A DNA stretch of 64,000 nt from assembly GCF_003334315.1 (NCBI RefSeq), contig NZ_QOWR01000005.1; one strand, given 5' to 3'. The notes beneath the pieces were generated by a model. That model made no database searches and was not told the DNA's origin. It was given only the letters and a program-made list of their open reading frames with translations. The DNA comes from Escherichia coli. GTDB taxonomy: Bacteria > Pseudomonadota > Gammaproteobacteria > Enterobacterales > Enterobacteriaceae. Position numbers and translations under genes: made by a program. Shown piece after piece: positions 3,728 through 49,104 of the stretch (positions within the stretch are counted from its first letter, which is position 1; every line of letters begins with the position of its first letter).

Positions 3728-3808
3728 GGCCTGATAAGACGCGTGAGCGTCGCATCAGGCATCGTTCACCATTGCCGGATGCGGCGTGAACGCCTTATCC
3801 GGCCTACG
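3728..3808. repeat. REP (repetitive extragenic palindrome) pair between convergent ypfH and ypfN
   Basis: gcctgataagacgc...gcgtcgcatcaggc and gccggatgcggcgtgaacgccttatccggcctac palindromic units. Confidence 0.8.
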
Positions 3809-21004: not shown

Positions 21005-21340
21005 ATGGATAAAGAACGCATCATTCAGGAATTTGTGCCCGGCAAACAGGTCACGCTGGCGCATCTCATCGCGCATCCCGGCGAGGAACTGGCGAAGAAA
21101 ATCGGCGTTCCGGATGCTGGCGCAATCGGCATTATGACGCTAACTCCCGGCGAAACGGCGATGATCGCCGGTGATTTAGCATTGAAAGCCGCTGATGTGC
21201 ATATCGGTTTTCTCGACCGTTTTAGCGGCGCGCTGGTGATTTATGGCTCGGTGGGTGCAGTAGAAGAAGCGTTATCACAAACCGTCAGTGGTTTAGGTCG
21301 CTTATTAAATTATACGCTTTGTGAAATGACCAAAAGTTAA
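21005..21340 (+). CDS. eutS: Ethanolamine microcompartment shell protein EutS (BMC domain)
   Basis: 111 aa from ATG 21005 ([10 protein letters not shown]...); ORF track starts 24 codons upstream. Confidence 0.9.
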
Positions 21341-21352
21341 TACGAGGCATTC

Positions 21353-21832
21353 ATGAAACGAATTGCGTTTGTGGGTACCGTCGGGGCAGGGAAAACAACG
21401 TTATTTAATGCGTTGCAGGGGAATTATACCCTCGCCAGAAAAACACAGGTCGTGGAATTTAATGATAAGGGCGATATTGATACGCCGGGTGAATATTTTA
21501 GCCATCCCCGCTGGTATCACGCCTTAATTACCACGCTACAGGATGTGGACATGCTGATCTATGTCCACGGCGCGAATGACCCGGAAAGTCGGTTGCCTGC
21601 CGGGTTGCTGGATATTGGCGTCAGCAAACGGCAAATCGCCGTTATCAGTAAAACGGACATGCCGGATGCTGACGTCGCCGCAACGCGAAAGTTATTGCTT
21701 GAGACGGGCTTCGAAGAGCCGATTTTCGAGCTAAACAGCCACGACCCGCAAAGCGTGCAGCAACTGGTGGATTATCTGGCATCTCTCACCAAACAGGAGG
21801 AAGCAGGTGAAAAAACTCATCACAGCGAATGA
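21353..21832 (+). CDS. eutP: Ethanolamine utilisation P-loop NTPase EutP
   Basis: 159 aa; Walker A GTVGAGKTT. Confidence 0.9.
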   Translation: MKRIAFVGTVGAGKTTLFNALQGNYTLARKTQVVEFNDKGDIDTPGEYFSHPRWYHALITTLQDVDMLIYVHGANDPESRLPAGLLDIGVSKRQIAVISKTDMPDADVAATRKLLLETGFEEPIFELNSHDPQSVQQLVDYLASLTKQEEAGEKTHHSE

Positions 21833-22496
21833 TATTCGTGAAGCACACGCGCGCGGCGAACAGGCAATGTCCGTGGTTCTGCGCGCCAGCATTATTACCC
21901 CGGAAGCCCGTGAAGTGGCAGATCTGTTGGGTTTTACCATCACCGAATGCGAGGAATCGACACCAGCAACGGTATCTGTGCCCGTAGAGAAAACCGAAAG
22001 CCAGCGTATCCGCGAAACCATTATCGCCCAGCTACCGGAAGGCCAGTTTACCGAAAGCCTGGTCGCGCAGCTGATGGAAAAAGTGATGAAGGAAAAACAG
22101 TCGCTGGAGCAGGGCGCAATGCAGCCGAGCTTCAAATCGGTGACCGGCAAAGGCGGCATCAAAGTGATTGATGGCAGTAGCGTCAAGTTTGGTCGTTTCG
22201 ATGGCGCACAGCCACACTGCGTCGGATTAACGGATTTGGTTACCGGAGACGACGGCAGCAGCATGGCCGCCGGTTTTATGCAGTGGGACAACGCCTTCTT
22301 CCCGTGGACCCTGAACTACGACGAAATCGACATGGTGCTGGAAGGGGAGCTGCATGTTCGCCACGAAGGCGAAACCATGATCGCCAAAGCAGGCGACGTG
22401 ATGTTTATCCCGAAAGGCTCCAGCATCGAATTTGGTACGACATCCAGCGTGAAATTCCTGTATGTCGCCTGGCCAGCTAACTGGCAATCCCTATGA
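21807..22496 (+). CDS. eutQ: Ethanolamine utilisation cupin-family protein EutQ
   Basis: 229 aa from GTG 21807, the first start codon after an in-frame stop; AGGAGG SD at 21795-21800; overlaps eutP by 26 nt. Confidence 0.85.
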   Translation: MKKLITANDIREAHARGEQAMSVVLRASIITPEAREVADLLGFTITECEESTPATVSVPVEKTESQRIRETIIAQLPEGQFTESLVAQLMEKVMKEKQSLEQGAMQPSFKSVTGKGGIKVIDGSSVKFGRFDGAQPHCVGLTDLVTGDDGSSMAAGFMQWDNAFFPWTLNYDEIDMVLEGELHVRHEGETMIAKAGDVMFIPKGSSIEFGTTSSVKFLYVAWPANWQSL

Positions 22497-48229: not shown

Positions 48230-49104
48230 TGGCGGAAGTTACCCAATTGAAGCGTTATGACGCGCGCCCGATTAACTGGGGCAAATGGTTTCTAATTGGC
48301 ATCGGGATGCTGGTTTCGGCGTTCATCCTGCTGGTGCCGATGATTTATATCTTCGTACAGGCGTTCAGCAAAGGGCTGATGCCGGTTTTACAGAATCTGG
48401 CCGATCCGGATATGCTGCACGCCATCTGGCTGACGGTGATGATCGCGCTGATTGCCGTACCGGTAAACCTGGTGTTCGGCATTCTGCTGGCCTGGCTGGT
48501 GACGCGCTTTAACTTCCCTGGACGCCAGTTACTGCTGACGCTACTGGACATTCCGTTTGCCGTATCGCCGGTGGTTGCCGGTCTGGTGTATCTGCTGTTC
48601 TACGGCTCTAACGGCCCGCTGGGCGGTTGGCTGGATGAACATAATCTGCAAATTATGTTCTCCTGGCCGGGAATGGTGCTGGTCACCATCTTCGTGACGT
48701 GTCCGTTTGTGGTGCGCGAACTGGTGCCGGTGATGTTAAGCCAGGGCAGTCAGGAAGACGAGGCGGCGATTTTGCTTGGCGCGTCTGGCTGGCAGATGTT
48801 CCGTCGTGTCACATTGCCGAACATCCGCTGGGCGCTGCTTTATGGCGTAGTGCTGACCAACGCCCGCGCGATTGGCGAGTTTGGCGCGGTGTCGGTGGTT
48901 TCCGGCTCGATTCGCGGCGAAACACTTTCGCTGCCGTTACAGATTGAATTGCTGGAGCAGGACTACAACACCGTCGGCTCCTTTACTGCCGCCGCGCTGT
49001 TGACGCTGATGGCGATTATCACCCTGTTTTTAAAGAGTATGTTGCAGTGGCGCCTGGAGAATCAGGAAAAACGCGCGCAGCAGGAGGAACATCATGAGCA
49101 TTGA
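48229..49104 (+). CDS. cysW: Sulfate/thiosulfate ABC permease CysW
   Basis: 291 aa; TAATG overlap with cysU. Confidence 0.92.

Follow-up and report, generated by a model that had tools for sequence, protein, structure and literature searches.

In the eut operon of the Escherichia coli strain analysed here, eutQ starts at a GTG codon that lies 26 nt inside the preceding gene, eutP, and we consider it quite probable that this arrangement is explained by normal operon compaction in a well-known enterobacterial eut operon. Both the overlap and the GTG start are already known: they are annotated, and a 2025 Salmonella paper describes the eutP/eutQ overlap (PMC12487888). We propose that eutQ is translated from this GTG by means of its own strong Shine-Dalgarno (SD) sequence, embedded in the last codons of eutP, and that the 26-nt overlap arises incidentally, from the position at which the eutP frame next meets a stop codon. 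The EutP tail would then be free to vary beyond the conserved core of the protein, and eutQ codons 1-9 would be under purifying selection. A preliminary description of this DNA had taken the overlaps of the operon as an indication of translational coupling; this is reasonable at the junctions that overlap by 4 nt, best of all at eutQ/eutT, and weakest at the 26-nt eutP/eutQ junction.

The window, a stretch of 64,000 nt, holds an intact 17-gene operon, eutSPQTDMNEJGHABCLKR (21005-35778, + strand, as are all eut features located below), according to the RefSeq annotation of strain CP53, which also places maeB upstream and hemF and amiA downstream of it. The window strain is E. coli and is 100% identical to CP53 over 1.3 kb around the eutP/eutQ junction (window coordinates equal those of the CP53 locus, L001, plus 6799). 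The same 1.3 kb was matched in 5412 of 5426 complete E. coli genomes, at an identity of at least 99% in only 106 of 5413 records and of ~95-96% in most. Gene order and content are identical to those of the 17-gene operon of Salmonella enterica and E. coli. Membership in the eut operon is evident from the gene order on one strand and from EutP and EutQ passing their NCBIfam equivalog models over their full length: EutP scored 349.7 bits against NF012011 (cut-off 258, residues 1-159) and EutQ 484.4 bits against NF012001 (cut-off 193, residues 1-229), with EutT likewise above its equivalog cut-off. The EutP/PduV subfamily model TIGR02528 covers residues 2-144 of EutP only, leaving the last ~15 residues outside the conserved core, and a search of the PDB by sequence returned no solved EutP structure. 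The operon is uninterrupted in the window strain, with eutA and eutB only 11 nt apart at their junction (within 31217-31229); in K-12 MG1655 the CPZ-55 prophage presumably sits inside the eut operon.

According to RefSeq, the eutP coding sequence occupies 21353-21832 (159 aa, stop TGA at 21830-21832) and that of eutQ 21807-22496 (GTG start, 229 aa), so the coordinates and the annotation alike bear out the 26-nt overlap and the GTG start. The overlap (21807-21832) comprises eutQ codons 1-8 and part of codon 9, and encodes the eutP residues (G)EKTHHSE followed by the stop. An identical 26-nt overlap is annotated in MC4100, which we take to be a K-12 derivative, and in a divergent clinical strain. 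The eutP/eutQ junction hardly varies over 5409 E. coli genomes: 5228 of 5410 records show an identity of 99% or more along its 111 nt. In MC4100 and RMDEC465, the EutQ allele is 233 aa long, compared with 229 aa here, due to a short deletion in the flexible EutQ linker (window 21945-21990, roughly residues 47-61).

It had further been claimed that eutQ can only start at GTG 21807. Indeed, the nearest upstream stop in the eutQ frame lies at 21732, with no ATG, GTG or TTG between it and 21807, and this start is well supported. From sequence alone, however, "can only" is overstated, because ATG 21867 (codon 21), GTG 21873 and GTG 21915 lie downstream in frame, and it is comparative evidence, not the logic of the open reading frame, that excludes them. 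We scanned one genome per species and obtained 57 related loci; the homologous codon is the start codon in 55 of them, out to Pseudomonas, the two exceptions being a disrupted C. koseri operon (L048) and a short fragment (L058). This codon is GTG in Escherichia, Salmonella, Citrobacter, Klebsiella, Pseudocitrobacter and Intestinirhabdus, and ATG in Buttiauxella, Yokenella, Entomohabitans, Pluralibacter gergoviae, Morganella, Serratia, Telmatospirillum and Pseudomonas. The N-terminal peptide MKKLITAND(I/V)R is kept throughout, and EutQ residues 1-20 are conserved. Moreover, among 31 distinct sequences of the GTG clade, third positions of eutQ codons 1-20 vary far more often (18/20) than first and second positions (8/40; Fisher p = 2e-7), a pattern from which it follows that the DNA is coding in the eutQ frame from the GTG onward.

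The GTG is also well placed for initiation. An AGGAGG SD (21795-21800) lies inside eutP (codons Q-E-E), 6 nt before the GTG, and its duplex with the 16S rRNA 3' end, at -10.3 kcal/mol, is the second-strongest in the operon; only 0.3% of the operon's 20-mers, used as background, pair equally well or better. A similar purine-rich motif (AGGAGG, GAGGA or the like) precedes the eutQ start in nearly all related loci. The fold of the eutQ initiation region was not significant, and comparison with shuffled sequence disclosed no sequestering structure around the start (z = +0.46). A literature search for ribosome-profiling work mentioning eutQ found none. Taken together, the comparative sequence evidence makes GTG 21807 a secure assignment as the eutQ start.

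The competing possibility, that eutQ starts at ATG 21867 (Met21) and the overlap is an annotation artefact, is hardly credible: an ATG is indeed present there in frame, but residue 21 varies among the relatives (M, V, I or L) and is V, I or L in many of them, codons 2-20 carry third-position substitutions and are conserved out to Pseudomonas, and distant genera have ATG at the GTG position. Experiments in Salmonella LT2 bear on the same segment (Yang et al. 2025, PMC12487888). There, eutQ codons 1-9 overlap eutP and were retained when the EutQ N-terminal region was deleted, and this region was found to be needed to link shell and cargo. That deletion of Salmonella EutQ residues 9-21 disrupts microcompartment assembly also speaks against a Met21 start, although on its own it is non-discriminating, as it removes Met21 too.

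Having placed the eutQ start, we turned to the length of the overlap, which varies among the related loci: the eutQ start is fixed and the eutP stop shifts from genus to genus. The overlap is 26 nt in Escherichia, C. sedlakii, Yokenella and Entomohabitans, and 23 nt in Salmonella (all loci examined), most Citrobacter, Klebsiella and Pseudocitrobacter; it shrinks to 4 nt (ATGA) in Buttiauxella, Telmatospirillum and Pseudomonas, and is replaced by a gap of 4-15 nt in Morganella, P. gergoviae, Serratia and Intestinirhabdus. As read from the sequence contexts, the difference between 23 and 26 nt is a single synonymous base in eutQ codon 7, GCT versus GCG. GCT followed by AA creates a TAA stop in the eutP frame, whereas with GCG the corresponding codon is GAA and eutP continues to the TGA formed by AAT-GAT.

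Within eutQ codons 1-8 of the GTG clade, variable positions number none of eight first, one of eight second and six of eight third positions. Since the eutQ wobble positions in the overlap are first codon positions of eutP, where the changes are non-synonymous, the EutP tail varies (GEKTHHSE, GEKTYHS, GEETNHS, GEKTHYR). The relative frame of eutP and eutQ also differs between the ATGA type and the 23/26-nt type. This difference in frame suggests, without proving it, that the long overlap arose from an ancestral ATGA junction through a small indel close to where eutP ends. We infer that the length of the overlap in itself serves no function. The retention of a 23-26 nt overlap across the Escherichia, Salmonella, Citrobacter and Klebsiella loci could nevertheless reflect selection rather than shared ancestry. 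In practical terms, overlap length can drift through synonymous changes as the downstream start stays fixed, and therefore a long overlap is not in itself evidence of coupling. We also observed that eutP is apparently truncated in two C. amalonaticus loci (L025, L016), and that many eut genes of C. koseri NCTC10786 (L048) are broken matches with irregular spacing, which suggests that this operon has decayed.

Could the 26-nt overlap nonetheless couple EutQ synthesis to that of EutP? Ribosomes terminating at UGA 21830 would have to back up by ~23 nt and, with the help of the SD, start again at GUG 21807. It is accepted that ribosomes can reinitiate at nearby starts (2025 review), backward reinitiation over ~23 nt is physically possible, EutP and EutQ are both annotated as acetate kinases of one pathway, and the overlap, with the SD just upstream, is kept in the core enteric genera. 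We nevertheless judge such coupling unlikely. In the account given in the 2025 review of the reporters of Tian and Salis, which were synthetic constructs, coupling weakened as the overlap was lengthened from -4 nt and had disappeared at -25 nt. According to the same review, most gene overlaps (more than 80%) measure less than 30 bp, with -4, -1 and -8 as the enriched classes, and both eutP/eutQ (-26) and eutJ/eutG (-11) lie outside these. The short stop-to-start distance of termination-reinitiation pairs is found at eutQ/eutT, eutT/eutD and eutH/eutA, and not at eutP/eutQ. The length of the overlap is, moreover, not conserved: it becomes 4 nt or a gap in other genera with the eutQ start unchanged, and a lone synonymous change in eutQ moves the eutP stop by 3 nt. 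Lastly, independent initiation of eutQ is the simpler reading, because its SD is strong and its initiation region has no significant structure. Among the junctions that overlap, the headline one of the preliminary description is thus where the case for coupling is weakest.

The overlap might instead act by interference, with ribosomes finishing eutP occluding the eutQ ribosome-binding site and so limiting or buffering EutQ output. The eutQ SD and GTG do lie within the last 13 eutP codons, and GTG is in general a weaker start codon than ATG, but the occurrence of ATGA or small gaps in relatives indicates that no particular geometry is apparently required, and we hold this to be very improbable. 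Next to no weight attaches to the idea of a +1 frameshift, promoted by the A6 run within the overlap (GTGAAAAAAC), that would yield an EutP-EutQ fusion protein. eutQ is in the +1 frame of eutP, and the window has an A6 run, as do 29 of the 56 loci counted; on the other hand, the run is interrupted in many loci (GTGAAGAAA, ATGAAAACG and similar), genera differ in the frame that eutQ takes relative to eutP, and a search for a known stimulatory element found none. With slippery run and relative frame both unconserved, we rejected a programmed frameshift site at this junction. A broader proposal, that the long overlap is a selected device fixing the EutP:EutQ ratio by occlusion or backward reinitiation and that, separately, the eutM-eutN spacer is an uncharacterised attenuator or RNA-processing element setting shell-to-enzyme stoichiometry, we regard as decidedly unlikely.

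To return to operon compaction, the reading that we prefer, we compared all 16 junctions of the operon, as derived from the sequence and the lists of open reading frames (minus for overlaps, plus for gaps). Besides eutP/eutQ, overlaps occur at eutQ/eutT (-4 nt, ATGA, 22493-22496), eutT/eutD (-4 nt, ATGA, 23293-23296, with an SD-like GGGGGA upstream), eutJ/eutG (-11 nt, 27287-27297, from the eutG ATG at 27287 to the eutJ end at 27297, with a GGAGG SD upstream) and eutH/eutA (-4 nt, GTGA, 29814-29817, where eutA has a GTG start preceded by a GGAGG SD). These four had been described in the same terms, and they match both our coordinates and RefSeq; the RefSeq/PGAP annotation of CP53 uses every one of the starts at the named junctions. 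The remaining junctions are gaps: eutS/eutP +12, eutD/eutM +38, eutM/eutN +106 (with hairpins), eutN/eutE +11, eutE/eutJ +10, eutG/eutH +116 (with a REP element), eutA/eutB +11, eutB/eutC +20, eutC/eutL +9, eutL/eutK +12 and eutK/eutR +45 nt (with a hairpin). The longest open reading frame of eutM begins at ATG 24306, which makes an ATGA with the eutD stop. We rejected an N-terminally extended EutM from this codon as not a real start: in 31 related loci the reading frame is closed by a stop 15 nt ahead of the annotated ATG (24348), and the upstream ATG is essentially confined to Escherichia loci.

The overlaps of the eut operon (5 of 16 junctions) are not more frequent than usual and are typical of tightly packed bacterial operons: outside eut, 4 of the 12 tight same-strand pairs in the window (gap below 30 nt) overlap as well. 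These are ypeA/yfeZ (14 nt, 38182-38195), cysW/cysA (11 nt, 49094-49104), and cysP/cysT and cysT/cysW (1 nt each, near 47396 and 48229). Because the first two exceed 4 nt, such lengths are not special to eut. For E. coli as a whole, Huber et al. (2023) place 24% of same-strand pairs at -8 to +6 nt; spacings of +9 to +12 nt make up 7%. The former class is not enriched in eut (3 of 16 junctions). By comparison with the genome-wide 7%, the latter accounts for six of the 16 (eutS/P, eutN/E, eutE/J, eutA/B, eutC/L and eutL/K; binomial p = 4e-4). These six resemble, with no difference of note, E. coli pairs at +9 to +12 nt that carry an SD in the spacer, and Huber et al. regard pairs of this spacing as initiated independently or coupled only loosely.

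We infer the initiation mode at each eut junction as follows. By sequence, eutQ/eutT, eutT/eutD and eutH/eutA belong to the same class as the coupled NTGA pairs at -4 (Huber et al. 2019, 2023). At eutQ/eutT, there is no SD upstream of eutT in the window (-1.5 kcal/mol); among the related loci, all 18 of the ATGA type likewise lack an SD (-1.5 to -2.3 kcal/mol), whereas all loci with a gap of 4-13 nt have one (-5.2 to -11.2 kcal/mol). This alternation, ATGA without SD versus gap with SD, is the pattern predicted by obligatory termination-reinitiation, and it makes the SD-less eutQ/eutT ATGA the best candidate in the operon for a strict form of this mechanism. As eutT has no SD of its own, eutQ deletions are likely to be polar on eutT.

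At the other two -4 junctions, eutT/eutD and eutH/eutA, coupling in addition to independent, SD-driven initiation is plausible, and the same perhaps holds at the -11 junction eutJ/eutG. At these three junctions, overlap and SD are both retained across most genera. Every related locus scored has a eutT/eutD spacing of -4 or -11 nt, and the -11 spacing of eutJ/eutG is kept from Escherichia to most Morganella loci. The eutH/eutA junction is GTGA in the enteric genera, ATGA in most Morganella loci and in Telmatospirillum, and a gap of 9-11 nt in Pseudomonas. A search of the literature for work linking the eut operon with translational coupling found none.

The overlapping enzyme genes had also been contrasted with hairpin-separated shell and regulator genes, and part of this contrast stands: hairpins do follow eutM and eutK, and all five overlaps lie between non-shell genes, at 5 of 9 non-shell junctions versus 0 of 7 that touch a shell gene (post-hoc one-sided Fisher, p = 0.03). 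No shell gene overlaps a neighbour in the window or in the relatives scored, and that overlaps are confined to non-shell junctions may point to some principle of organisation. The shell genes are not, however, generally separated by hairpins. For each of eutS, eutN, eutL and eutK, at least one adjacent gene is only 9-12 nt away, and the spacers eutS/eutP (12 nt), eutN/eutE (11 nt), eutC/eutL (9 nt) and eutL/eutK (12 nt) therefore leave no room for one. Shuffled versions of the eutD/eutM spacer fold just as well as the spacer itself (z = -0.3). We suggest that each shell gene has its own SD, placed 9-12 nt after the preceding stop.

Only three eut spacers are structured: eutM/eutN, eutG/eutH and eutK/eutR. 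The 45-nt eutK-eutR spacer harbors a 12-bp stem-loop (34690-34719; fold -22.7 kcal/mol, z = -4.1), and eutR is without an SD (-1.7 kcal/mol); in Salmonella, a weak constitutive promoter, P2, precedes eutR (PMC5821096). The structured eutG-eutH spacer (28475-28590) counts against the proposed contrast, as it lies between two non-shell genes and its structure is a REP-type dispersed repeat, not specific to eut and of variable presence. The 26-nt REP core recurs at 3776-3801 and 40347-40372; with the copy in this spacer, its degenerate 26-nt pattern thus has three exact matches in the window versus 0 expected, the recurrence characteristic of REP/BIME elements. Among the relatives, the spacer ranges in length from 27 to 474 nt. 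An Rfam match to naRNA4 (RF02564) at 28529-28569 reached 39.9 bits, below the gathering threshold of 59.5, and we accordingly rejected membership in this family and regard the element as a related REP sequence.

The most elaborate spacer is that between eutM, the major shell gene, and eutN (24642-24747, 106 nt; fold -43 kcal/mol, z = -3.2). Its first hairpin (24649-24674, 10 bp) is the top terminator-like match in the operon and was flagged by a consensus terminator scan, its tail being a mixture of C and T; the second (24676-24716) is followed by a conserved motif, TTTTACCTGAA (24718-24728). We compared 18 non-REP spacers from related loci (L004-L046) of Escherichia, the Citrobacter freundii group, K. 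spallanzanii, Buttiauxella, Entomohabitans, P. gergoviae and Morganella. The layout of two hairpins is conserved: the first hairpin is kept in all 18, with two pairs changed on both sides (compensatory), and the motif is nearly invariant. In Morganella, T5-T7 runs follow both hairpins. In Salmonella, Klebsiella and several Citrobacter, the spacer is filled by REP-like sequence in place of the native hairpins found in the window. A stable RNA structure after eutM thus seems to be kept by different means.

REP elements and stable 3' hairpins are known from the malE-malF paradigm to stabilise upstream mRNA segments. The eutM spacer resembles stabilisers of this type in that a stable hairpin directly follows the major shell gene and in that Salmonella and Klebsiella carry REP-like sequence at this position, a REP being present after eutG in the window; it differs from them in that its hairpins look terminator-like too. 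The eutM hairpins probably serve the major shell gene as a leaky terminator or as a 3' stabiliser of its mRNA. No Rfam family covers them, a scan of the operon at E-values up to 1 yielding only one sub-threshold REP-related match and one at chance level, and searchable literature contained no paper on the structure of this spacer.

These findings are of practical value for engineering eut strains and for expressing Eut microcompartments in other hosts, and mean little beyond careful annotation otherwise. In particular, eutP deletions must spare ~38 nt of the 3' end, which hold the eutQ SD and eutQ codons 1-9.

Two further observations were made in the window. Residues 1-37 of EutQ (21807-21917) and of EutT (22493-22603) have a motif in common, MKxxIT..R..H....(I/L)TPxARE, with 14 of 37 residues identical (pairwise E = 4e-5). 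Since the N-terminal region of Salmonella EutQ binds shell and cargo, EutT might possess a similar targeting segment. Downstream of the operon, yfeR (62093-63019), which encodes a LysR-family regulator, is annotated in CP53 as a pseudogene with an internal stop.
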